A stretch of 28,880 nt of DNA from Oscillospiraceae bacterium (GTDB lineage: Bacteria; Bacillota; Clostridia; Oscillospirales; Ruminococcaceae), in the NCBI GenBank assembly GCA_045542675.1, contig JAZQLL010000099.1, positions 1 to 28,880 of the forward strand, given 5' to 3'. Within the stretch, counting starts at the first letter, position 1, and every line of letters starts with the position of its first letter. Made by a program: the position numbers and the translations under genes. The notes beneath the pieces were generated by a model. That model searched no databases, was not told where the DNA came from, and saw only the letters and a list, made by a program, of their open reading frames with translations. This document shows positions 5,528 through 20,031 of this stretch, piece by piece.

Positions 5528-5560
5528 AAAAAGACCATAGGCACTGCCTATGGTCTTTTT
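5528..5560. terminator. Bidirectional terminator between convergent GH31 and cinA-sortase genes
   Basis: AAAAAGACCATAGGC-ACT-GCCTATGGTCTTTTT perfect 15-bp inverted repeat. Confidence 0.88.
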
Positions 5561-5564
5561 TGAT

Positions 5565-8210
5565 TTATTCGTTTACGCCCCCGGGAGTCAACTCGTTGCT
5601 ATCCGAAGGGGTGTCGGTAGGAGTGTCATTCGGGGTCTCATTCGGTGTTTCACTCGGAGTCTCACTAGGTGTTTCGCTCGGAGTTTCCGATGGAGTATCG
5701 CTAGGTGTTTCACTAGGGGTTTCCGAAGGAGTTTCACTTGGCGTTTCGCTCGGAGTCTGTGAAGGAGTTTCACTCGGGGTTTCTTCCTCGCTGCTCGGCG
5801 ATGAAGGAGTACTGCTGCTTGAAGACGAAGACTTGTTATCCGATGAGTAAGAGGGTCTCACGGGAGTGTTGGGTCTGGAAGCAATACTGCTATTCCAGAG
5901 TTTATTACTCGAGGATTCGTCTGAAGAATCGTTAAATTGATTATTGTTTCCCGTATTATGTGTTGCCTCATTTACCGCAACAGAATTATCCTCATTGGCT
6001 CTTACACGTCTTGCCATAACTACAAGGCGCTGACCGTCGAAATCGTAATAGCAGGTAGAGAGAGTGAGAATATTATCTGTACTTAAGACATCGACGGGAA
6101 TGTTGAATATGGATTCATTTCTTACGCGCCTTAAGAATGTATCAAACTCTCCCTCATCTTTAGGGTTGAGCATATTATAGTAGTCAAATACCGCACCGTT
6201 TTTGCTCTCAACATTACAGGTAAAGATGGCGAAAATTTTCCACTGAGATCTCTCGTAAACTGTGTCAAAACTTATAAGGGGGTGCTTTCTGTAATAATTG
6301 AGCGCATCGCTTCCCTTATAGTAGTTTTCAAGTTCCGAGAACATCTGGTCATCGCTCTTCATATTGTGTCCGTGAATTACGGTATTAAAATCGAGCGGAC
6401 TTATATTATTTCGGCTATCCATAAAGGGAACACCGTGGCGCTCCTTTTCGCCGTAGAAGTTATGGTTTAAATAGAAATCGTTATCGGTTGTCTGAACTAC
6501 GGGGTAGTTAAGCTTAGTTCCCTCTATTTCAATCCAACCCGCAATCTCCTTATTTTCCTGATACAAAATACCGAATTCATCAAGGTAATTTTTAGGATAA
6601 ACCAGGGACTCTGTGGGAATTTCCTCTTTAAGCTCGGCAAGATTTTGATAGAGGTTATCATTTTGCTTTATCGAAAGGAAGAATGTTGCGATATAGCATA
6701 CGGACACCAAAAGTGCTACGACCGCTACCAAAAATACGCTCTTTCTCACCTTTTCGGCGCCATTATCGGCTTTATTTGGGAAAATGCTTGCTAAAAAGCC
6801 TTTTTTCTTGGCTAAAACAGGGGCATCTGCATCGTCATTTTTCTGGGGAGCATTTTTTTCCTGCTCGTTCTTTTTAACGTTACTGAATATGAGTTTTCCC
6901 TTCATAGACTCGCGGCTCTCAATACTATTGGGAACCTCGCTTACGGGAAGCCTTTGTGAATTAAAGATAGCAAAGCCGTTCATTACGCGGCGTACCATAT
7001 CAAACGCATGCAAACTTGCAAGCTCCCTAATCTGCTCGCGGCTCTCCTTACCGGTTATGGCAAGTTCAAAGCGCTTTACCCAAGCAGTTTCGCGATTACA
7101 AACCGCCACAAACACAAGGCCGACCGGTTCACCGAGCATTGATGCAGGGCCGGCATAACCCGTTACCGAAACGCCAAAATCGGAATTTGCGGTATTCATT
7201 GCTCCTACCGCCATCTGAAGCGCGGTTTCGGCACTTACTGCGCCAAATTCACTCAAAGTCTGCTCATCTACACCGAGAATAAGGTTTTTAATACCCTCGG
7301 AGTAACTTGTGACACCGAACTCAAAGCAGAGCGAAGCGCCGGGGATTTCGGTTATTTTCTTTGAAATAAGTCCGCCTGTGCAGGATTCCGCAGTTGCAAT
7401 AGTCATTTTGTTAGCAACGAGTTCACTTACAACGGCGTGATGAATTGAGGGCTCATCGATGCCATAGATAACATCTCCGAGTCTTCTCTCTATCTCCTCT
7501 ACCGCCTGGTCTACCTCTCTGATTGCAACCTTGAAATCATCCGAACAAGAGGAAACGAAAATGTCTATTTTGCCGTTTGAAGCGTATGTAGCAACAGTCG
7601 GGCTTGTCCTTTCAATGAGATCGGAAAGCGACTGAGCGATAAGTGATTCGGTCATTCCAAAGACATTTACAGTTTTAGAAACGACAGTTTTGCCTGTCAT
7701 GCTCTTTAAAAAGGGCAGTACACTTCTCTCAAGCATGGGGCGAAGTTCACTCGGGGGGCCGGGGAGCAAAATTATGCACTGATTTCCACTCTTTAAAATT
7801 GCGCCCGCCGAAAGACCGACGTCGTTTTTTATTACAACACTTCCTTCGGGCACCATAGCCTGACGGATATTATTATCCGCCATTTGCTCGCCTTTTCTAA
7901 AGAAATACGCCTTTATTTTCTCTAAACTCGGCTCGTCAACTACCTGATTTATGGAAAGCAGTTCACACACGGCATCTTTTGTGACATCATCGGGTGTGGG
8001 ACCGAGTCCACCTGTCATAATTATGATATTACTACGACCGAGTGCGGCGGCAACAACTGCCTTAAGGTCCTTTTTACTATCTCTTACAGAGGTCTGAAAG
8101 GAAACCTCAACTCCTATTGCACGAAGCTCCTCGGATATGAACTGGGCATTAGTATTAAGTTGTTGGCCTGTAAGTATTTCCGAGCCTACGGTAATGATTT
8201 CTGATCTCAT
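5565..8210 (-). CDS. cinA: Fusion protein: CinA (COG1058 domain + PncC NMN deamidase, aa 1-410), linker, TM helix (aa ~491-512), class B sortase (aa ~549-738), Ser/ETPS-rich tail
   Basis: EIITVGSEILTG, GGLGPTPDDVT, ATAESCTGG and SVTGYAGP are CinA motifs. GWIEIEGTKLNYPVVQ, VIHGHNM, LTLSTC and RLVVMAR are SrtB motifs with His/Cys/Arg. One uninterrupted 881-codon ORF. Confidence 0.88.
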   Translation of the reverse strand: MRSEIITVGSEILTGQQLNTNAQFISEELRAIGVEVSFQTSVRDSKKDLKAVVAAALGRSNIIIMTGGLGPTPDDVTKDAVCELLSINQVVDEPSLEKIKAYFFRKGEQMADNNIRQAMVPEGSVVIKNDVGLSAGAILKSGNQCIILLPGPPSELRPMLERSVLPFLKSMTGKTVVSKTVNVFGMTESLIAQSLSDLIERTSPTVATYASNGKIDIFVSSCSDDFKVAIREVDQAVEEIERRLGDVIYGIDEPSIHHAVVSELVANKMTIATAESCTGGLISKKITEIPGASLCFEFGVTSYSEGIKNLILGVDEQTLSEFGAVSAETALQMAVGAMNTANSDFGVSVTGYAGPASMLGEPVGLVFVAVCNRETAWVKRFELAITGKESREQIRELASLHAFDMVRRVMNGFAIFNSQRLPVSEVPNSIESRESMKGKLIFSNVKKNEQEKNAPQKNDDADAPVLAKKKGFLASIFPNKADNGAEKVRKSVFLVAVVALLVSVCYIATFFLSIKQNDNLYQNLAELKEEIPTESLVYPKNYLDEFGILYQENKEIAGWIEIEGTKLNYPVVQTTDNDFYLNHNFYGEKERHGVPFMDSRNNISPLDFNTVIHGHNMKSDDQMFSELENYYKGSDALNYYRKHPLISFDTVYERSQWKIFAIFTCNVESKNGAVFDYYNMLNPKDEGEFDTFLRRVRNESIFNIPVDVLSTDNILTLSTCYYDFDGQRLVVMARRVRANEDNSVAVNEATHNTGNNNQFNDSSDESSSNKLWNSSIASRPNTPVRPSYSSDNKSSSSSSSTPSSPSSEEETPSETPSQTPSETPSETPSETPSETPSDTPSETPSETPSETPSETPNETPNDTPTDTPSDSNELTPGGVNE
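5604..5783 (-). repeat. 15 tandem 12-bp units encoding [EQD]TP[SNT] (aa 810-869 of the fusion)
   Basis: 15 units counted directly, e.g. GAAACCCCGAGT; synonymous codons vary between units. Confidence 0.95.
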
Positions 8211-8222
8211 TTTTTCCTCCGA

Positions 8223-9398
8223 TTAGTTTGCTAAAATATGCTCAATTTCGGTGTTCTCTACTGCGCGGTTTACTAGTCCCTCAATATCAACACCAGCCTC
8301 TACCTTGGCAAAATCCTCAAGATTAGGCTTTGTCTTGGGGTGTTTTGGTGTAAACACTGTGCAGCAATCCTCAAAGGGCTGAACCGAAATATCAAAGGTT
8401 TCAATTTTTCTTGAAATTGAAACTATTTCCTCTTTATCCATACCGATAAGGGGACGGAAAACGGGCATAGAACTTACTGCATCGGTGCAGCAAATTGCAG
8501 GAAGGGTCTGACTTGCAACCTGACCGAGACTTTCGCCCGTTATAAGTGCCTGAGAGTAGTCTTTTTTTGCAATTTCATTTGCAATGCGCATCATAAAACG
8601 GCGCATAACAAGGGTTGAATATTCTTCTTTTATATCGTCTCTTATCATTTCCTGAATTTCGGTGAAGGAAACGGTATAGAGCTTAATTCTACCGCAATAT
8701 CTGGCCACCTGGCGAAGAAGGTCTTTTACCTTCTCAAGCGCTCTATCGCTTGTGTATGGCGGCGAAGCAAAGTGGACTGCCGAAATTTCAAGTCCTCGTT
8801 TGCCCATCATATAGCCTGCAACCGGGCTATCGATACCGCCCGATATAAGCAACATTGCTCGACCGCCTGTACCTGTCGGGATACCACCCGCGCCGTCCAA
8901 CTGCGCGCCGTGAACATAGGCAAAATTATCTCTTACCTCGACCACAACAGTGACCTCGGGATTTATCACATCAACCGAAAGATTTTTATATTTTGAAAGG
9001 ATATATCCGCCCACTTCCCTGCAAATTTCGGGGGAAGTTTTGGGGAATTTCTTGTCCGAACGCTTAGCGATTACCTTAAAAGTTTTGGCGTTTGAGAGCT
9101 CATTCTGAAGGTAGTTAACCGCCGTTTTCTGAATAACTGACATATCTTTTTCGATTTCGCAGGCACGACAAAATGCGCTTACTCCGAAAACGCGGCTAAC
9201 AATATCAATTGCCGCATCCATATCGAAAAATTCGTCCTTGGAACTTACTGTGATAGTGGACTGCGATTTCTTTATTTCCACCGCTCCAAGATGCCTCATT
9301 CTGCGGCGGATATTACGAATCATGGTGTCCTCAAAGGTATTTTTATTAAGCCCTTTAAGAGCGATCTCACCGTTTTTTATAAGAATAATTTCTTTCAT
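8223..9398 (-). CDS. thiI: tRNA 4-thiouridine(8) synthase ThiI (short form, no rhodanese domain)
   Basis: N-terminal IKNGEIALKG, THUMP region, PP-loop LISGGIDSPVA, TGESLGQVASQT, FEDCCTVF. Confidence 0.96.
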   Translation of the reverse strand: MKEIILIKNGEIALKGLNKNTFEDTMIRNIRRRMRHLGAVEIKKSQSTITVSSKDEFFDMDAAIDIVSRVFGVSAFCRACEIEKDMSVIQKTAVNYLQNELSNAKTFKVIAKRSDKKFPKTSPEICREVGGYILSKYKNLSVDVINPEVTVVVEVRDNFAYVHGAQLDGAGGIPTGTGGRAMLLISGGIDSPVAGYMMGKRGLEISAVHFASPPYTSDRALEKVKDLLRQVARYCGRIKLYTVSFTEIQEMIRDDIKEEYSTLVMRRFMMRIANEIAKKDYSQALITGESLGQVASQTLPAICCTDAVSSMPVFRPLIGMDKEEIVSISRKIETFDISVQPFEDCCTVFTPKHPKTKPNLEDFAKVEAGVDIEGLVNRAVENTEIEHILAN

Positions 9399-9409: not shown

Positions 9410-10543
9410 TTATTTCAATTTTTGCAAACTGCTCAGTGCCTCTTTTAAGGCGGAGAGAAATGCTTCTATATCATTTTGAGTATTATCCGAGCAAAAGCTT
9501 ACTCTGATAGCAGTATCTATCGCCTTTTGAGAAAGTTGCATGGCCGATAAAACATGACTTCTGCTACCTTTTGCACAAGCCGAGCCGCCCGAAATATAAA
9601 TTTCCTTTTTCTCCATAAAGTGAATAAGCGTTTCCGATTTTATAGCGTTGGTCGAGAAATTCACAACATAGGGCATGGCATTTTCGGGGGAATTTATCTC
9701 TATTCCCTCAATTTGATTAAGTCCGCCCAAAAGGCTCTCGCGAATTTCCTTTATTTTTTTATAGTTTTGCGGCATCGCTGAAATTGACTCATCACAAGCG
9801 ACACCGAATGCGGCGATTGCGGGGGCATTTTCAGTTCCGGGGCGGAAACGATTTTGTTGTTCTCCGCCGAAAAACATAGGGGAAACTTTGGTTCCCTTTT
9901 TAACAAAAAGCGCACCGACTCCCTTAGGACCGCCTATCTTATGAGCGCTTACCGAGAGCATATCTACCCCGAGTTTTCCAACATTTACGGGAATTTTACC
10001 AAACGCCTGAACGGCGTCGCAGTGCACAAGAGTGCTGCTATTGTGTCTTCTCGCGGCGGCGGCAATGGTTGCAATATCCTGAATACTGCCGACCTCGTTA
10101 TTCACAAGCATCACAGACACTAAAATTGTGTTTTCATCGACCGCTTTTGTTACCGACTCGGGCGAGATTGTGCCATTTTTATCGGGTGCAATTTTCACAA
10201 TTTCAAAGCCTTTTTTTGAGAGGTAATCAGCGGCATCGAGCACCGATGAGTGCTCAATCGCGGAAACAACTATCTTTTTCCCGCGGCGCGAATTTGCCTC
10301 GGCGGCGCCTATTATCGCGGTGTTATTCGCTTCTGTTCCGCCGCTTGTAAAATATATTTCTCCCTCGCGGCAGTAGAGCGCCGCGGCGAGCGTTTTTCTG
10401 GCATTTTTTATTTCCATCTCGGCGCTAAAGCCGAAGGAATGAAGAGAAGAAGGGTTTGCAAAGCACTCGGTCATCATATAAGTGGCCTTCTCTGCCGCTT
10501 TTTTTGACACCTTTGTGGTTGCGCTGTTATCAAGATATATCAT
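9410..10543 (-). CDS. iscS: Cysteine desulfurase (IscS/NifZ type, ThiI partner)
   Basis: IYLDNSATT, FTSGGTEANN, HCDAVQ, PLP lysine SAHKIGGPKG, active Cys SGGSACA; 11 bp upstream of thiI, as in Bacillus nifZ-thiI. Confidence 0.93.
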   Translation of the reverse strand: MIYLDNSATTKVSKKAAEKATYMMTECFANPSSLHSFGFSAEMEIKNARKTLAAALYCREGEIYFTSGGTEANNTAIIGAAEANSRRGKKIVVSAIEHSSVLDAADYLSKKGFEIVKIAPDKNGTISPESVTKAVDENTILVSVMLVNNEVGSIQDIATIAAAARRHNSSTLVHCDAVQAFGKIPVNVGKLGVDMLSVSAHKIGGPKGVGALFVKKGTKVSPMFFGGEQQNRFRPGTENAPAIAAFGVACDESISAMPQNYKKIKEIRESLLGGLNQIEGIEINSPENAMPYVVNFSTNAIKSETLIHFMEKKEIYISGGSACAKGSRSHVLSAMQLSQKAIDTAIRVSFCSDNTQNDIEAFLSALKEALSSLQKLK

Positions 10544-10572: not shown

Positions 10573-10601
10573 ATATTATATAATAAATGTATCTTTATTT
10601 C
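10573..10601 (-). promoter_or_regulatory. Sigma-A promoter of iscS-thiI-cinA
   Basis: Minus strand TTGAAA (10601-10596), 17 bp spacer, TATAAT (10578-10573). Confidence 0.65.
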
Positions 10602-10618
10602 AAGTATAAAGGGCAAGT

Positions 10619-11149
10619 TTAATTATTTGGTAACTTTTTTAGTAGTTTTTGCCTATCTTTATAGTCGGGCAGATACTTCTCTATCAAATCATAGAATTTC
10701 TTACTGTGATTTTTATGCTTTATATGGGCAAGTTCGTGCACCACCACATAGTCGATAGCCTCTATGGGATACTGCATAAGTCTACACGAAAAGCATATAG
10801 AATTTTTACCGCTACACGAGCCGAACCGCGTTTTCGCCGAAGTGATTTTAAGGGCGGTCGGAAAAAGATTCATCAGTTCGCTATAGTATCTTACCCTCTC
10901 GGGCAGAACATCTTTTGCGCGTTTTTTAAGTTCCTTTATCTTCTCGCTTGAGAGTTCGACGGGGGTATTTTGTGCCTTTTCCCTCATTTTTTCGATTGCC
11001 TTTTCTATCCACTCTTCTCTCGATTTTACAAATGCCTCAACCGTAAATTTCGGGAGTAAAAACGGCGCTCTGACTATCACTTCAAGGTCGCGATTTACCT
11101 CAATTGCAAGGCTCTTCCTTTTTGAGCGAACAAGAGTGTATTCACGCAT
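10619..11149 (-). CDS. YgjP/M48-like (DUF45) metal-dependent hydrolase
   Basis: RSKRKSLAIEV, KTRFGSCS and DYVVVHELAH (HEXXH). Start placed at ATG 11149, overlapping the DUF523 stop by 8 nt. Confidence 0.85.
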   Translation of the reverse strand: MREYTLVRSKRKSLAIEVNRDLEVIVRAPFLLPKFTVEAFVKSREEWIEKAIEKMREKAQNTPVELSSEKIKELKKRAKDVLPERVRYYSELMNLFPTALKITSAKTRFGSCSGKNSICFSCRLMQYPIEAIDYVVVHELAHIKHKNHSKKFYDLIEKYLPDYKDRQKLLKKLPNN

Positions 11150-11585
11150 TGTCCTGCACCAACTTTTCAAGTTCATTTTCGTTGTAAAGTTTTATGCCTT
11201 TACACGATAAAAGCGTTGCTGTTATGCCATTCTTTTCGTTTGTAAGCGTTCCTGTGAAGGTTCCATCGTACACTCCGCAGTTACTGCAAGAAGGGCTTTT
11301 TGCTTTTAAAACAGCGCATTTACAGCTGAAAATTTCGCATAATTTAAGGGCAATTTCAGCGCCTTTTTGATATTCTTTTGTACAGTCTACTCCCTCTTTG
11401 GAAATCACCCTATCACCTATTATCTCACAAGGCACTCTGGGGATCTTAAGACCCCCTGCCGCCTCGGGACAAACAGGAATGAGTCTATGATTTTCTTTAA
11501 GGGCAATGACCTTCTCGCTCGGTTTACTCTGCCCATCATACCTACAAGGGTTTCCGAGAAGGCAGGCGCTTACTAATATATTCAT
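11142..11585 (-). CDS. DUF523 / YbbK family protein (TudS-like thiouracil/thiouridine desulfidase, [4Fe-4S])
   Basis: ILVSACLLGNPCRYDG, PVCPE, PRVPCE, LKAKSPSC and GITATLL are hallmark DUF523 motifs. Confidence 0.9.
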   Translation of the reverse strand: MNILVSACLLGNPCRYDGQSKPSEKVIALKENHRLIPVCPEAAGGLKIPRVPCEIIGDRVISKEGVDCTKEYQKGAEIALKLCEIFSCKCAVLKAKSPSCSNCGVYDGTFTGTLTNEKNGITATLLSCKGIKLYNENELEKLVQDNA

Positions 11586-12049
11586 TTTATCCTCTCTCCA
11601 TTTAAAATTGCGGATGTAAGGGAATCCTTTTGGTAGTTTAATTCGAGCTTAAAAAACGGAGCGTTTTCTTCAAGGAGTTTTAAAAAGATAAAATCGCCCT
11701 CCCAAAGCGGAAGTGATTTTAGTCTATCCTTCTCTATCCACTCAAGGTCGCCCTCGTCACATTCTATCAGGTCGCCTTTAAACTCAGTGGCGGTAAAAAG
11801 ATGCATAACTTCATCGGGATAAGGCGGGCAGGAAAAGTAAACTATTCCGCGGTAGGTGTAGTTTAAAACATCAAGTCCCGTTTCCTCTTCCGTTTCACGA
11901 AGAGCGCACTCAAGCGGAGTTTCGCCCTCTAAAAACTTTCCGCCGATGCCAATATATTTATCCTGATTTACATCGTTTTTCTTTTTCACTCTGTGAAGCA
12001 TCAGGTATTTGCCGTCTTTTTCAATATAGCAAAGGGTTGTGTGTATCAT
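11582..12049 (-). CDS. Nudix hydrolase, MutT/MutX-like
   Basis: Nudix box GGKFLEGETPLECALRETEEETG; CDEGDLEW and LPLWEGD motifs; ATGA overlap with DUF523. Confidence 0.9.
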   Translation of the reverse strand: MIHTTLCYIEKDGKYLMLHRVKKKNDVNQDKYIGIGGKFLEGETPLECALRETEEETGLDVLNYTYRGIVYFSCPPYPDEVMHLFTATEFKGDLIECDEGDLEWIEKDRLKSLPLWEGDFIFLKLLEENAPFFKLELNYQKDSLTSAILNGERIK

Positions 12050-12103: not shown

Positions 12104-13756
12104 TTAGTTTTGTGCGGGCTTAAAGCTATCCTTAAGGGTTACTGCTCTATTAAAGCAACCCTCGTTTTTACTATCCTTACAGAAATATCCCATACGGACA
12201 AACTGGAACTTCTCCCCTACCTTTGCATCCTCTAACGCCTTTTCAAGCTTTGCATTCTCGCAAATCTTAAGCGACTCGGGATTAAGGTAATCAAGGTAAT
12301 AGGTTCCCTCGGGAATGTCGATAAGATTATCTCTTGAGAAAAGTCTATCATAGAGACGAAGCTCGGCATCGATGCAGTTTTCTTGAGAAACCCAATGAAT
12401 AGTTCCCTTAATCTTTCTGCCGTCTACGGGGTTGCCGTTCTTTGTTTCTAAATCGCAGGTACAAAGGATTTCCTTTATCTCGCCGTTTTCATCCTTTACA
12501 ATCTCATTGCAACGAATTATATAGGCGCCCATAAGTCTTACCTCGCCATCGGGCTTGAGTCTGAAGAACTTGGGTGGCGGAACTTCTGCAAAATCGCTCT
12601 TCTCAATATAGAGATTGCGGGTAAATGCAACCTTTCGAGTACCTGCGTTTTCATCATTGGGGTTATTGGGAAGGTCAAAATACTCAGTCTGACCTTCGGG
12701 GTAGTTTGTAATGGTAACCTTTACAGGATCGCAAACGGCAATTCTGCGGGTAGCGTTAAGATTGAGTTCTTCTCTCAGGCAATGCTCTAAGAGGGCAAAA
12801 TCCACAACGCTATATGCCTTGGAAACACCTGCTCTGCCCACAAAGTCAAGGATTGAACTAGCGGTAAATCCACGTCTTCTAAGGCCACAAAGGGTGGGCA
12901 TTCTAGGGTCATCCCAACCATCGACACGTTTTGTTTCAACAAGCTCACGAAGATAGCGCTTACTCATTACAACGCCGGTTACATTAAGTCTTGCAAACTC
13001 ATACTGATGGGGCTCCTTCTCGAAGCCTATATTCTGCACTACCCATTCATAGAGGGGTCTGTGATTTTCAAATTCAAGCGAGCAAAGCGAGTGGGAAATA
13101 CCCTCTAAAGCGTCCTGAATGGGATGCGCAAAGTCATAGAGGGGATAAATGCACCACTTATTGCCCTGTCTATGATGAGGCTGACGGCTGATTCTGTAAA
13201 TTGCAGGGTCGCGCATATTCATATTAGGCGATGCCATATCAATTTTTGCACGAAGTGTGCAGGCGCCATCCTCAAACTCGCCGTTCTTCATTTTCTCGAA
13301 AAGTTCAAGATTTTCCTCTACACTTCTGTTTCTATAGGGACTCTCTTTGCCGGGCTCGGTAAGTGTACCGCGGTACTCTCTCATTTCGTCTGCCGAAAGG
13401 TCGCAAACATAAGCCTTGCCCTCGCGGATGAGTTTTACCGCAAATTCATAGCATTTCTCAAAGTAGTCCGAGCCGTAGAAAATATTATCAGGCTCGGCGC
13501 CAAGCCAGTGAAGATCCTCTTCAATAGCCTTAACATACTCGTCGTCTTCTCTTGCGGGGTTGGTATCGTCATATCGAAGGTTAAACTTTCCGCCGTACTT
13601 TTTCGCGGTCGCGTAGTTTATATAAATTGCCTTTGCGCTTCCGATATGAAGATAACCGTTAGGCTCAGGGGGAAAACGGGTGTGAATTTTCTGCACCTTA
13701 CCCTCGGCAATATCGTTATCTATAATTTCGTGAATAAAATTTGATGCAATTTCCAA
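12104..13756 (-). CDS. glnS: Glutamine--tRNA ligase
   Basis: TRFPPEPNGYLHIGSAK, RAKIDMASPNMNMRDP, WCIYPLYDFAH, VMSKR, DGWDDPRMPT, FQFVRMGYF; TTG start. Confidence 0.95.
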   Translation of the reverse strand: MEIASNFIHEIIDNDIAEGKVQKIHTRFPPEPNGYLHIGSAKAIYINYATAKKYGGKFNLRYDDTNPAREDDEYVKAIEEDLHWLGAEPDNIFYGSDYFEKCYEFAVKLIREGKAYVCDLSADEMREYRGTLTEPGKESPYRNRSVEENLELFEKMKNGEFEDGACTLRAKIDMASPNMNMRDPAIYRISRQPHHRQGNKWCIYPLYDFAHPIQDALEGISHSLCSLEFENHRPLYEWVVQNIGFEKEPHQYEFARLNVTGVVMSKRYLRELVETKRVDGWDDPRMPTLCGLRRRGFTASSILDFVGRAGVSKAYSVVDFALLEHCLREELNLNATRRIAVCDPVKVTITNYPEGQTEYFDLPNNPNDENAGTRKVAFTRNLYIEKSDFAEVPPPKFFRLKPDGEVRLMGAYIIRCNEIVKDENGEIKEILCTCDLETKNGNPVDGRKIKGTIHWVSQENCIDAELRLYDRLFSRDNLIDIPEGTYYLDYLNPESLKICENAKLEKALEDAKVGEKFQFVRMGYFCKDSKNEGCFNRAVTLKDSFKPAQN

Positions 13757-13778
13757 AGTCTTAACATCCTTTCAGGGC

Positions 13779-15422
13779 TTACGCTTTTGCGCCGCTTAAT
13801 CTCTCTACTGTTTTATCTTTTCCGAGAATTTTCATAATCTCATAAAGGTCAGGCGAGTTTCTTCTGCCGGTTACCGCTACGCGCAGAACCATACTTACAT
13901 CGCCGATGTGACCTTTATAAAGTTCAGGATTCTTTTTATAAAGTTTTGTTTTGGGAGCGAAGCCTAAATCCTCTGCTATCTGGGTCATTTTAGCAAACCA
14001 GGTTTCCTGATCGTCGCTCTCGCAGAAGCTTTCTGCAAAACGGCTTAAGATTTCGTTTCTATCCTCGCTGCTTACATTTTCGGGCATCTCGCCAGTTATT
14101 TCAAACAAATCATCATAGAAGAAGCAAACGTAGTCCTTTACCTCGTTCCATTTTGCAATATCTTTTCTGGGCTTTTCGCCGCCGCGGCCAATTGCGAGAA
14201 TGCTCTTGGCATAATCGGGAGCCGAAGTGAATTTCTCATAAAGGACGCTATCATTATCCTTTGCCCAGGCGGTTACCTGCTCGTAAACTTCGTCTGCAGT
14301 CATGGTACTAATGGCATTGCGGCTAACATCAAGAAGCTTGTCCATATCAAAAAGGCAACCCGAAACGCTCATCTTTTCGGCAGTGAACTTAAAGTCATTT
14401 AAGGGTGCCGAAGGATTCTCTATGCGCCATTCCTCAAAGTTTGAATTTAGGAGAGTCATAATATACTCACTTACGCTCTTTGAGGGGAAGCCCTCTTCAT
14501 AATAGAAGGAGAGGGATGCCTCGGGGTCCTTTCTTTTGGAAAGTTTACGCTTTGTACCATTGTCAAGTTTCATAAGTTGTGCGATGTGCATATAGTAAGG
14601 CTGGGGGAATCCGAGTGCCTCAAAAAGTTGCACATGGAAAGGCAGTGTTGCAAGCCACTCCTCGCCTCTTACAACGTGGGTAGTGCCCATCACGTAGTCA
14701 TCAACCGCGTGCGCAAAATGGTATGTCGGTATTCCGTCTGACTTGAGCATTACGTGGTCAATATCGTTCTCGGGGAACTCGAGTCTGCCTTTAATAAGGT
14801 CATTTACTACTGCGGTTTTACTGGGATCACCCTGCGAGCGAAAACGGAGCACAAATTTTTCGCCGTTTTTAATTTTTTCCTCGATTTCCTCAAAACTTAA
14901 ATTACGGCAAGCCGCATACTTACCATAATATCCGAAATTATCCTTATTTGCTTCCTGCTCTTTTCTCATTTCCTCAAGGCGCTCTTCGCTACAGAAGCAG
15001 GGATAAGCCTTGCCCTCTGCGATGAGTTTCTTTGCAAACGCCTGATAAATCTCGGCGCGCTGGCGCTGATAGTAGGGTCCATAATCTCCCTTTTCACCAT
15101 CAGCAGTTGCGCCCTCGTCGAAGATAATATCATAACGCTCAAGCGAGCTCAAAAGAATCTCGACTGCACCCTCAACCTCTCTTTTCTGGTCGGTATCCTC
15201 AATTCTTAAAATGAAAACGCCGCCGCTCTGGTGAGCAAGTCTTTCACTGGTAAGTGCGGGAAAAAGGTTTCCAAGATGCACAAAACCTGTGGGACTGGGG
15301 GCAAGTCTGGTTACCGCCGCACCCTCGGGAAGTTCTCTTTTGGGGAACATCGCGAGCGCCTTATCATAGGTTAATTTACAATCGGGATATAAAAGCTCAG
15401 CGAGCCTATTTAAATCAGCCAT
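13779..15422 (-). CDS. gltX: Glutamate--tRNA ligase
   Basis: TRLAPSPTGFVHLGN, LRIEDTD, GPYYQRQR, PTYHFAHAVDD, HVVRGEEW, KLSKRK. Start placed at ATG 15422 (GGAG RBS). Confidence 0.95.
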   Translation of the reverse strand: MADLNRLAELLYPDCKLTYDKALAMFPKRELPEGAAVTRLAPSPTGFVHLGNLFPALTSERLAHQSGGVFILRIEDTDQKREVEGAVEILLSSLERYDIIFDEGATADGEKGDYGPYYQRQRAEIYQAFAKKLIAEGKAYPCFCSEERLEEMRKEQEANKDNFGYYGKYAACRNLSFEEIEEKIKNGEKFVLRFRSQGDPSKTAVVNDLIKGRLEFPENDIDHVMLKSDGIPTYHFAHAVDDYVMGTTHVVRGEEWLATLPFHVQLFEALGFPQPYYMHIAQLMKLDNGTKRKLSKRKDPEASLSFYYEEGFPSKSVSEYIMTLLNSNFEEWRIENPSAPLNDFKFTAEKMSVSGCLFDMDKLLDVSRNAISTMTADEVYEQVTAWAKDNDSVLYEKFTSAPDYAKSILAIGRGGEKPRKDIAKWNEVKDYVCFFYDDLFEITGEMPENVSSEDRNEILSRFAESFCESDDQETWFAKMTQIAEDLGFAPKTKLYKKNPELYKGHIGDVSMVLRVAVTGRRNSPDLYEIMKILGKDKTVERLSGAKA

Positions 15423-15470
15423 AATTTTACTCCGTTTCGTCTGGGTTTTAAACATACTAACACAGAATAT

Positions 15471-18980: not shown

Positions 18981-19316
18981 TTACCGCGCGCATTTCTTAC
19001 AGGGTGTCAAATAATAAAAGTTTTTTGCTTTATCTAATGTTGTGGCATATGAGTTCTTTCCCCCGCAGGTTTCTACTATATGGTATCTTTTTCCTGTAGG
19101 CGTTATATAAACAGTCATATTGTTTTCTTTAATATGTTCATTAGATATAAAACTTTCATTTTCATTGACAGAATATTGTGAAAGAATCTTATCTAACTCG
19201 GTGTTTGATTGCTCCATTTTTTTATTTGACAAATCCTGCATTTTTAACAGATACACAATAACGATAATAAAAGAGAAAAAAATTATTATCTCGATTATTG
19301 TTCTTTTCTTATTCAT
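18981..19316 (-). CDS. Membrane-anchored protein with C-terminal Ada-like metal-binding motif
   Basis: N-terminal TM IIEIIIFFSFIIVIVYLL; C-terminal VYITPTGKRYH...C...TPCKKC; GGGGCGAGG RBS. Confidence 0.7.
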   Translation of the reverse strand: MNKKRTIIEIIIFFSFIIVIVYLLKMQDLSNKKMEQSNTELDKILSQYSVNENESFISNEHIKENNMTVYITPTGKRYHIVETCGGKNSYATTLDKAKNFYYLTPCKKCAR

Positions 19317-19337
19317 AGTCCTCGCCCCCCATTTTTT

Positions 19338-19369
19338 ATGTTATAAATTCTAACATATATTTATAACAT
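19338..19369. promoter_or_regulatory. Perfect 11-bp inverted repeat in the divergent promoter region
   Basis: ATGTTATAAAT (19338-48), 10 bp spacer, ATTTATAACAT (19359-69). Confidence 0.55.
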
Positions 19370-19402
19370 TCGTCAAGGCATAATATATGTGAGGTGAATG
19401 TT

Positions 19403-19591
19403 ATGAAAAATAAACTCGTAATAAATAAAAAGAATCTTAAAGGCGAAGACGGATATCGCACATTTTCCATTCGAATAAAATCTGAAACAGTTGCAAATTT
19501 GGATAAGCTAGCAAAGGAAACAAATCACTCTCGCAATGCCTTAATTAATGTTCTCTTAGAATACGCTATGGATAATTGTCAAGTAGAATAA
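19403..19591 (+). CDS. CopG-like ribbon-helix-helix protein
   Basis: Beta strand RTFSIRI followed by two helices (VANLDKLAKETNHSRNALINVLLEYA); GAGGTG RBS. Confidence 0.8.
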   Translation: MKNKLVINKKNLKGEDGYRTFSIRIKSETVANLDKLAKETNHSRNALINVLLEYAMDNCQVE

Positions 19592-19708
19592 AACGATTCA
19601 ACTAATTCATACTATTGTACAATTCAATATGTAACTAATTCAATAAAGTTCATACGAATAATTAATTAGAATCAGAAAAAAATAATAGTAAAAATTTGCA
19701 AAAATCGG

Positions 19709-19737
19709 TTGACAAACCGCAATCTTACTGATATAAT
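19709..19737 (+). promoter_or_regulatory. Consensus sigma-A promoter of tRNA-Lys
   Basis: TTGACA (19709-14), 17 bp spacer, TGaTATAAT (TATAAT 19732-37). Confidence 0.85.
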
Positions 19738-19776
19738 AGACAAGCATCATTTAGTTGATGCATTTTTGTTGTGCCC

Positions 19777-19852
19777 GATCCATTAGCTCAGTTGGCAGAG
19801 CACTTGACTTTTAATCAAGGTGTCCGGAGTTCGAATCTCCGATGGATCACCA
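19777..19852 (+). tRNA. tRNA-Lys (anticodon TTT)
   Basis: 76 nt; acceptor GATCCAT/ATGGATC, D-arm GCTCAGTTGGCAGAGC, anticodon arm CTTGA-CTTTTAA-TCAAG, T-arm CGGAG-TTCGAAT-CTCCG, ACCA. Confidence 0.97.
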
Positions 19853-19889
19853 AAAAACCGAAATGCCCTTTTGGGTATTTCGGTTTTTT
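19853..19889 (+). terminator. Rho-independent terminator of tRNA-Lys
   Basis: AAAAACCGAAATGCCC-TTTT-GGGTATTTCGGTTTTTT. Confidence 0.88.
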
Positions 19890-19947
19890 ATTTTGATTTG
19901 AAGTTGCGGAAAGTACTATGTTTTATACTATTGTACTATAAAAAAGG

Positions 19948-19976
19948 TTGCAAGAAGAAAAAAAATGGTGTAAAAT
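19948..19976 (+). promoter_or_regulatory. Sigma-A promoter of galE-coaX-ECF S
   Basis: TTGCAA (19948-53), 17 bp spacer, TAAAAT (19971-76). Confidence 0.6.
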
Positions 19977-20031
19977 AAGATGAGGGATTATGTATTCCCA
20001 TAAATAAAAGGCAAGAAAAGGAATGAAATGT

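Follow-up and report, generated by a model that had tools for sequence, protein, structure and literature searches.

A predicted membrane protein joining CinA to a class B sortase in gut Oscillospirales

The window analysed here is a 28,880-nucleotide stretch of DNA from an uncultured gut Oscillospiraceae bacterium (GenBank assembly GCA_045542675.1, contig JAZQLL010000099.1, positions 1 to 28,880, forward strand). The genome to which it belongs, G000, is a metagenome-assembled genome (MAG) of 228 contigs, 91% complete and with 4.7% contamination. On the minus strand, at positions 5565–8210, lies a gene for P0001, an 881-residue protein read from a single uninterrupted frame with no internal stop. 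P0001 is composed of a complete CinA, a linker, one transmembrane helix, a class B sortase and a low-complexity tail, and its gene directly follows iscS and thiI (Table 1). An earlier note, made from the DNA letters without database searches, had described an open reading frame (ORF) of this length holding a complete CinA, one transmembrane helix and a SrtB domain. Pfam, NCBIfam and a check of the frame bear this out; the motifs that it quoted for both enzymes, placed below, were all found where it had put them, and the helix corresponds to residues 491–514 (window positions 6740–6669).

The CinA half is canonical. Residues 1–411 score above the cut-offs of two CinA models, the NCBIfam equivalog NF001813 (435.5 bits against 379) and TIGR00200 (347.4 bits against 243.15), and the canonical order of COG1058, KH and PncC domains is kept (Pfam). 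The motif GGLGPTPDD is at residues 67–75, within the COG1058 domain that forms the ADP-ribose pyrophosphatase half, and AESCTGG is at residues 274–280. In the nicotinamide mononucleotide (NMN) deamidase site of Thermus thermophilus CinA (TtCinA), Lys-301 is the proposed general base, Thr-340 its partner and Tyr-296 a phosphate-binding residue (PMC4246079); alignment to 4ct8 places K308, T350 and Y303 of P0001 at TtCinA K301, T340 and Y296. These three residues are invariant in all 121 fusion homologues aligned, and 120 of them also have G67, G68, D74 and D75, the remaining one showing a gap there. P0001 departs from the soluble, stand-alone CinA form of about 400–420 residues in its architecture only, not within the CinA module. 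Residues 1 to about 440 are predicted to form a complete cytoplasmic CinA, catalytically competent as both ADP-ribose pyrophosphatase and NMN deamidase.

The sortase half is equally typical of its class. The class B model TIGR03064 matches residues 488–731 with 162.8 bits (cut-off 153.75), residues 470–745 by themselves score 166.7 bits, and the Pfam Sortase match covers residues 560–736. Structures of SrtB proteins in the PDB are matched at E 1e-33. The motifs GHNM (614–617), TLSTC (716–720) and RLVVMAR (728–734) are present, and H615, C720 and R728 align with the motifs of Bacillus anthracis SrtB, forming the His-Cys-Arg triad; among the 121 homologues the histidine is kept in 119, the cysteine in 115 and the arginine in 120. 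The membrane anchor is N-terminal to the sortase domain, which is predicted to face outwards. Exactly one transmembrane segment occurs, at the aligned position, in every one of the 121 homologues. In P0001, its N-terminal flank is net positive (K/R-rich, ending in KVRK) and its C-terminal flank net negative, so that by the positive-inside rule the protein should adopt an N-in/C-out topology. On the outer side there would then be a class B sortase competent for catalysis and, after it, a disordered tail. The tail was considered as a sorting signal of P0001 itself and rejected, its C-terminus being neither hydrophobic nor basic. The tails of the homologues are 27–198 residues long, rich in Ser, Thr, Pro and Glu, and similar in composition. 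Pfam finds no SpoIID match in P0001; G000 has three genes with a SpoIID domain, all separate and unlinked, on contigs C86 and C131.

An AlphaFold2 model of P0001 was built from 100 homologues (mean predicted local distance difference test score (pLDDT) 84.6; predicted template-modelling score (pTM) 0.55). It is confident over residues 1–440, which comprise CinA plus an added strand and helix. After these come a disordered stretch (443–464), a short helix (465–476), a long helix enclosing the transmembrane segment (484–529) and a confident sortase fold (544–755, pLDDT >90 in this region); everything from residue 758 on is disordered. In Foldseek comparisons, the CinA half matches TtCinA (4ct8) with a template-modelling score (TMt) of 0.82. 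The sortase half matches class B sortases of five species (B. anthracis, S. aureus, L. monocytogenes, C. perfringens and C. difficile) with TMt 0.86–0.90, including 0.90 for 2oqw and 5jcv, 0.89 for 5b23 and 0.87 for 4lfd. The mutual placement of the two halves in the model is unreliable because pTM is 0.55.

The region between the two enzymes, which the earlier note had described as a charged linker of about 80 residues, is indeed present, but it is not a mere charged spacer: a conserved segment (411–440) and a second conserved segment (465–490) flank a variable one (443–464). Mean pairwise identity across 11 genomes of the genus is 0.61–0.69 for the CinA domains, 0.50 for the extension that follows them (411–442), 0.19 for the spacer (443–464, 17–28 residues long), 0.43 for the juxtamembrane segment (465–490), 0.59 for the transmembrane helix, 0.51 for the stalk, 0.65 for the sortase and 0.28 for the tail. 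The first 20 or so residues of the extension are near-constant, with many positions identical. Across the wider family of 121 homologues, the linker ranges from 44 to 242 residues.

The fusion is found far beyond this assembly. A length-restricted search for long proteins returned at least 189 clusters; the best 120 of these matches, drawn from NCBI, ENA, JGI and Logan, are 746–1058 residues long and 35–78% identical to P0001, and nearly all share its four Pfam domains. Those that are named are labelled 'competence/damage-inducible protein A' and come from Oscillospiraceae, Ruminococcaceae or Clostridia MAGs; the database labels for the fusions are simply CinA or sortase. When 1.84 billion cluster representatives (50% identity) were searched exhaustively with HMMER, a CinA part and a sortase were found to occur together in at least 110 clusters among the best 150 matches examined (101 with CinA_N, PncC and sortase, five with CinA_N and sortase, and four with PncC and sortase; 553–1403 residues), and ESM Atlas clusters give an agreeing picture. 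The frame is uninterrupted in all ten same-genus genomes sampled (53–68% identity), orthologues among species being 53–74% identical in protein, and the fusion is also intact in other genera and families of Oscillospirales. Among 150 genomes sampled evenly from 30 families of the order, full fusions occur in a few families (f4, f9 and f15, besides f1 and f13), and a stand-alone CinA is present in most genomes. The earlier note had considered that close relatives might carry separate cinA and srtB genes and that the fusion might be private to this assembly. Separate, adjacent genes do exist in two relatives (G013 and G032), but the fusion is not private. In G000 it is the sole CinA found in the assembled part of the genome.

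Variation in natural populations points the same way. Four independent metagenomes of animal gut or faeces yield contigs that match window positions 6173–7007, 7101–7575 and 8003–8153, mostly at 95–99% identity and in a few cases at 99% or more; this read-level evidence comes from DNA and consists of short Logan contigs of low depth. None of these contigs has an indel within the ORF, which answers the concern, raised in the earlier note, that an assembly error or a lost stop codon might lie in the linker. All 29 listed population variants are synonymous, five of them in the linker (residues 413, 418, 464, 469 and 485) and four in or beside the transmembrane helix. Because the linker variants are all synonymous, the linker appears to be translated in this frame and to be under purifying selection in nature. 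A chimera or a stop-loss artefact private to the MAG, which the fragmentation and contamination of the source assembly might suggest, is rejected, with a probability close to nil: the architecture recurs throughout the genus sample and in hundreds of independently sourced database proteins, and the linker region is covered by indel-free contigs from four metagenomes. On the evidence of these sequences, the CinA–sortase fusion is genuine, old and widespread in gut Clostridia.

A continuous ORF could still give rise to two proteins, through internal initiation in the linker or proteolysis of the spacer. The linker contains an ATG in frame (M436), and the spacer at 443–464 is disordered and thus exposed to proteases. 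However, no convincing Shine–Dalgarno sequence precedes M436, which is not conserved in the genus, and the frame stays open across linkers of very different length throughout the homologues, with only synonymous population variants in the linker. Unfused relatives, by contrast, show a clear stop and a new start. We regard separate products as highly improbable.

The gene for P0001 is separated from thiI by 12 bp, and thiI from iscS by 11 bp. The earlier note had placed the three genes in one operon with gaps of these sizes, and the gap sizes are confirmed. A Shine–Dalgarno sequence lies within the gap after thiI, a single promoter-like site is found just upstream of iscS, and a hairpin with a perfect 15-bp stem, likely a bidirectional terminator, separates the stop codon of the fusion gene from a convergent GH31 gene (Table 1). 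From the short gaps, the Shine–Dalgarno sequence, the one promoter-like site and the one terminator, we infer that the fusion is co-transcribed with iscS and thiI. Directly upstream of iscS–thiI, at positions 10619–12049 on the minus strand, are three mutually overlapping genes that Pfam assigns to a Nudix protein, a DUF523/2-thiouracil desulfurase-like protein and a YgjP-like metallopeptidase.

Table 1. Features of the P0001 gene, its product and its operon in the window.
Feature	Window position	Strand	Residues of P0001	Basis or detail
Whole fusion ORF, P0001	5565..8210	-	1-881	CinA, linker, transmembrane helix, class B sortase, low-complexity tail
COG1058/MoCF-type domain of CinA	7704..8201	-	4-169	Pfam PF00994 MoCF_biosynth, 113.6 bits
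KH-type middle domain of CinA	7461..7679	-	178-250	Pfam PF18146 CinA_KH, 61.9 bits
PncC/NMN deamidase domain	6981..7445	-	256-410	Pfam PF02464, 158 bits
Conserved post-CinA extension	6891..6980	-	411-440	Strand 418-422, helix 430-440; block-mean pLDDT 83-95 (AlphaFold2)
Variable disordered spacer	6819..6884	-	443-464	pLDDT <50 (AlphaFold2)
Cytoplasmic juxtamembrane helix and motif	6741..6818	-	465-490	Helix 465-476; motif F-P-x-K-x-D...E-K-V-R-K 477-490
Single transmembrane helix	6669..6740	-	491-514	
Class B sortase catalytic domain	6000..6581	-	544-737	H615 at 6366-6368, C720 at 6051-6053, R728 at 6027-6029
Disordered extracellular tail	5568..5945	-	756-881	Ser/Thr/Pro/Glu-rich
12-nt tandem array within tail	5618-5783			Encodes E/D-T-P-S units
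Shine-Dalgarno sequence GGAGG	8216..8220	-		5 nt upstream of ATG at 8210, inside 12-bp gap after thiI
Hairpin	5528..5560			Perfect 15-bp stem between fusion gene stop and convergent GH31 gene
thiI, tRNA 4-thiouridine synthase, upstream operon gene	8223..9398	-		Pfam ThiI, THUMP, ThiI_fer
iscS/nifS-type cysteine desulfurase, first gene of conserved order	9410..10543	-		Pfam Aminotran_5, synteny
Best promoter-like site, just upstream of iscS	10575..10603	-		11/12 match; consensus match only

The operon also reveals how the fusion arose. Synteny was assessed by tblastn of the window proteins against loci from 30 genomes. The order iscS–thiI–cinA–srtB recurs throughout Oscillospirales, with cinA and srtB fused or unfused, and thiI lies directly upstream of a cinA-type gene (full cinA, PncC-only or fusion) at all cinA-linked sortase loci that were examined. 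The fully fused state is found in the genus of the window and in G014, G024, G027 and G036; a fusion with only COG1058 and KH in G018 and G019; and a fusion with only PncC in G038. In G013 and G032, the two genes are adjacent yet separate, a clear stop being followed by a new start. A PncC-only gene adjoins srtB in G022 and G011, and G017 and G012 have iscS–thiI–cinA without a sortase. Relatives also differ in what follows the sortase: SpoIID (G024 and G016), Big_2 (G016 and G019), Big_9 (G038) or low-complexity sequence (G014 and P0001). These comparisons indicate that the gene arose by fusion of the last two genes of a conserved Oscillospirales iscS–thiI–cinA–srtB operon, and we regard the anatomy and origin of the fusion, taken together, as very nearly certain.

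The CinA moiety is not always catalytically intact. GGLGPTxDD has been lost from the fused COG1058 domain of G018, G016 and G036, yet these degenerate copies align over their full length and Pfam still recognises them. A separate, intact, stand-alone cinA is present in G018 and G016 as well. If CinA were dispensable to the sortase, a useless appendage of some 250–400 residues should decay or be deleted; the persistence of degenerate copies on the sortase in genomes where an intact cinA exists elsewhere therefore suggests a structural role for the module.

The sortases linked to cinA form a group of their own. In a maximum-likelihood tree of 51 sortase domains, the 11 fused sortases of the genus make up one clade (support 100/100), and all cinA-linked sortases together with local paralogues fall into one larger clade (89/79), which is set apart from the other class B sortase of the genus (100/100). 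Deep in the tree, where branching is unresolved, fused and unfused states are interleaved, forcing at least two changes. A juxtamembrane motif on the cytoplasmic side, hydrophobic-P-x-K-x-D followed by E-x-x-R-K, is present in 114 of 121 fusions, with P478, D482, R489 and K490 each at least 90% conserved. Sortases that adjoin cinA without being fused to it (G013, G032 and G011) have the motif too, as do sortase paralogues of G023 and G015; it is absent from the second sortase of G000 and from a lipoprotein-type sister clade. We conclude from tree and motif that the cinA-linked sortases are a distinct subfamily with a conserved cytoplasmic motif. One locus of this subfamily, L037 (G015:C3:200000-214000), has four tandem sortase B genes; one of their products is 865 residues long with an acidic N-terminal region of about 390 residues that has no Pfam match, and no cinA was detected in the 14 kb of the locus.

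The fusion may instead be neutral, the product of stop-codon loss between adjacent, co-transcribed genes, with two independent halves and no cross-talk, which then persists since splitting it again would need a stop, a ribosome-binding site and a start simultaneously. Several observations agree with this: all catalytic residues are kept in both halves, the central linker is disordered and variable, unfused adjacent pairs survive in G013 and G032, the majority of genomes sampled in the order encode a stand-alone CinA, and iscS–thiI–cinA is conserved without an obvious functional link and can lack the sortase altogether, as in G017 and G012. The retained degenerate CinA copies argue against it, as do the cytoplasmic juxtamembrane motif, which is specific to the subfamily and missing from other sortases, the conservation of residues 411–430 after CinA, and the interleaving of fused and unfused states on the sortase tree. 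Overall, we judge a neutral fusion to be rather unlikely, though a serious contender.

The assembled part of G000 holds two sortases, both of class B. The C-termini of all its ORFs were scanned for tripartite signals made up of x-P-x-[TSA]-x, a hydrophobic stretch and, last, a basic tail. This genome-wide scan finds no sorting-signal protein on the contig of the window, in agreement with the earlier note, which had seen no substrate there; the scan of the genome that it proposed yields three candidates on other contigs. Contig C76 (locus L019; 374–8143, minus strand) encodes a surface protein of 2590 residues. Its domains are an N-terminal VWA, 11 FctA (Spy0128-like isopeptide) and two DUF7601 domains; it bears an APDTG signal and, from its sequence, is likely a major adhesin and sortase substrate. 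Contig C120 encodes a protein of more than 908 residues with an SPNTG signal and a Gram_pos_anchor match, and contig C74 a 219-residue protein with a PPNAG signal. SrtB of C. difficile cleaves (S/P)PXTG signals (PMC4155245). The candidate signals of G000 resemble this type, and the sortase half of P0001 would be expected to anchor (S/A/P)PxTG proteins.

The second class B sortase, on contig C71 (locus L021; 5677–8166), has 256 residues and scores 163.5 bits with TIGR03064. It is flanked by a gene for a small secreted Ig-like protein and one for an LCP (LytR-CpsA-Psr) protein. The Ig-like protein has 185 residues and an atypical anchor, …SPDSPPLGD followed by a hydrophobic stretch and CRKRFN. 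Judging from gene content, this cluster looks like a compact cassette of sortase, substrate and wall-polymer ligase with an unusual sorting motif.

Together, these results lead us to favour, with a probability of roughly 55%, the reading that P0001 is an intact dual-enzyme membrane protein in which CinA also serves as a structural module of the sortase. In the cytoplasm, the CinA half would supply the NMN deamidase and ADP-ribose pyrophosphatase of the cell. On the other side of the membrane, the most likely task of the sortase half is to anchor surface proteins in the cell wall by cutting their (S/A/P)-P-x-T-G signals, the genes for these proteins lying elsewhere in the genome. The CinA half would in addition be a dimerising or scaffolding module of the cinA-associated sortase B subfamily, and the protein may work as a dimer, its two sortase domains held by the CinA dimer. 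In the TtCinA homodimer, the pair of NMN deamidase and KH domains and the COG1058 pair both lie on 2-fold axes (PMC4246079), and therefore either piece of CinA, if retained, could still dimerise. A dimerising scaffold would explain why relatives keep one piece or the other, even when it is catalytically dead. Taken by itself, structural coupling of the CinA module to the sortase subfamily has, in our estimate, somewhat less than an even chance of being correct.

Several points weigh against this favoured reading. Conservation of the central linker is poor, and its length varies. No CinA subdomain is kept universally, some relatives having only COG1058 and KH and others only PncC, which weakens any one docking model. 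Stand-alone CinA proteins in most sampled Oscillospirales indicate that neither enzyme has to be coupled to the other. Adjacency, together with a topology that permits fusion, could give rise to repeated neutral fusions. That the degenerate CinA copies retain their fold is judged from sequence alignment and Pfam alone. Finally, the second sortase of G000 could, instead of the fused one, serve the candidates on C120, C76 and C74.

The earlier note had proposed that the fusion would either tether the salvage of nicotinamide adenine dinucleotide (NAD) to the membrane where cell-wall anchoring takes place or let a nucleotide-binding domain gate the sortase. In the second, bolder alternative, binding or turnover of NMN, ADP-ribose or an NAD-related nucleotide by CinA would tune the sortase across the membrane to the metabolic or DNA-damage state of the cell. 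Many receptors are dimers with a single transmembrane helix, and P0001, with its one helix and probable dimerisation, is similar in this respect; its juxtamembrane segment, transmembrane helix and stalk are conserved. The COG1058 domains of the asymmetric CinA dimer also undergo a large, ligand-linked rocking (PMC4246079). However, the disordered, non-conserved spacer of 17–28 residues between CinA and the juxtamembrane helix would be a poor conduit for a signal, and nucleotide-site residues or whole CinA subdomains are lost in paralogous fusions. The degenerate CinA modules of relatives fit a structural scaffold better than nucleotide gating, which we consider distinctly improbable. Broader still is the proposal that CinA-type modules are a dedicated cytoplasmic partner of the sortase B subfamily, either docked through the P-x-K-x-D...RK motif or fused, and in species such as that of the window couple NAD/ADP-ribose status or DNA-damage and competence signals to surface-protein anchoring; we would treat this as a long shot.

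Elsewhere in the window, positions 12104–15455 (minus strand) contain two adjacent genes for class Ic aminoacyl-tRNA synthetases, one of the GlnRS/GluRS type (550 residues, with tRNA-synt_1c_C) and one of the GluRS type (558 residues, with Anticodon_2). The G+C content dips sharply to 0.30 at positions 19001–20000, against about 0.43 in the remainder.

CinA is widespread, yet its physiological role is still debated; in pneumococcus, a clean cinA null mutant has no transformation or methyl methanesulfonate-tolerance phenotype (PMC11708029). Sortases are viewed as extracellular enzymes that act on their own and have only a token cytoplasmic stub. A large, conserved family in which CinA, or a dead copy of it, is tied to special sortases, together with the operon linkage and the cytoplasmic motif, suggests an unstudied cytoplasmic component of surface-protein anchoring in abundant gut Firmicutes. 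The genus of the window offers the cleanest test case, with both enzymes intact and the fusion as sole CinA. Should docking or coupling prove true, CinA would gain an envelope function; should the fusion prove neutral, it would be a useful textbook case of recurrent fusion between operon neighbours. As the earlier note had supposed, the architecture appears to be uncharacterised: no description of it was found in the literature searched.

P0001 has the same three-domain order as the known CinA structures (T. thermophilus 4CT8/4UUX, PMC4246079; S. mutans 6MR3). It is 43–44% identical to the best cluster representatives of stand-alone CinA and matches 6MR3 at E 5.6e-79; the NMN deamidase Lys, Thr and Tyr and the GGLGPTxDD motif are intact, and the fold agrees at TMt 0.82. 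Whereas known CinAs are soluble, about 400–420 residues long and often encoded beside recA, P0001 is encoded after iscS–thiI, has a conserved C-terminal extension of about 30 residues and runs on into a transmembrane helix and an extracellular enzyme. With class B sortases (1RZ2/2OQW, 1NG5/4LFD, 5JCV, 5B23 and 4UX7/5GYJ), P0001 shares the triad, TLSTC, the class B fold and the N-terminal anchor. It differs from them in having about 490 residues, including a whole enzyme, where a short cytoplasmic N-terminus is usual, in the cytoplasmic P-x-K-x-D...RK motif, in the long disordered Ser/Thr/Pro tail and in that no substrate, isd-type or pilus genes adjoin its gene. The candidate signals of G000 are of a type similar to those of C. 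difficile SrtB (PMC4155245). The CinA–sortase(–SpoIID/Ig) fusions and cinA–srtB clusters of gut Oscillospirales have genomic context, sortase subfamily, motif and single transmembrane helix in common with P0001; compared with these relatives, the version in this genus has both enzymes intact, is the sole CinA and ends in a low-complexity tail, not in SpoIID or Big_2/Big_9. By every sequence and fold criterion tested, the modules of P0001 are thus an ordinary CinA and an ordinary class B sortase, and no earlier description was found of their combination or of the properties that mark the cinA-linked sortase subfamily.

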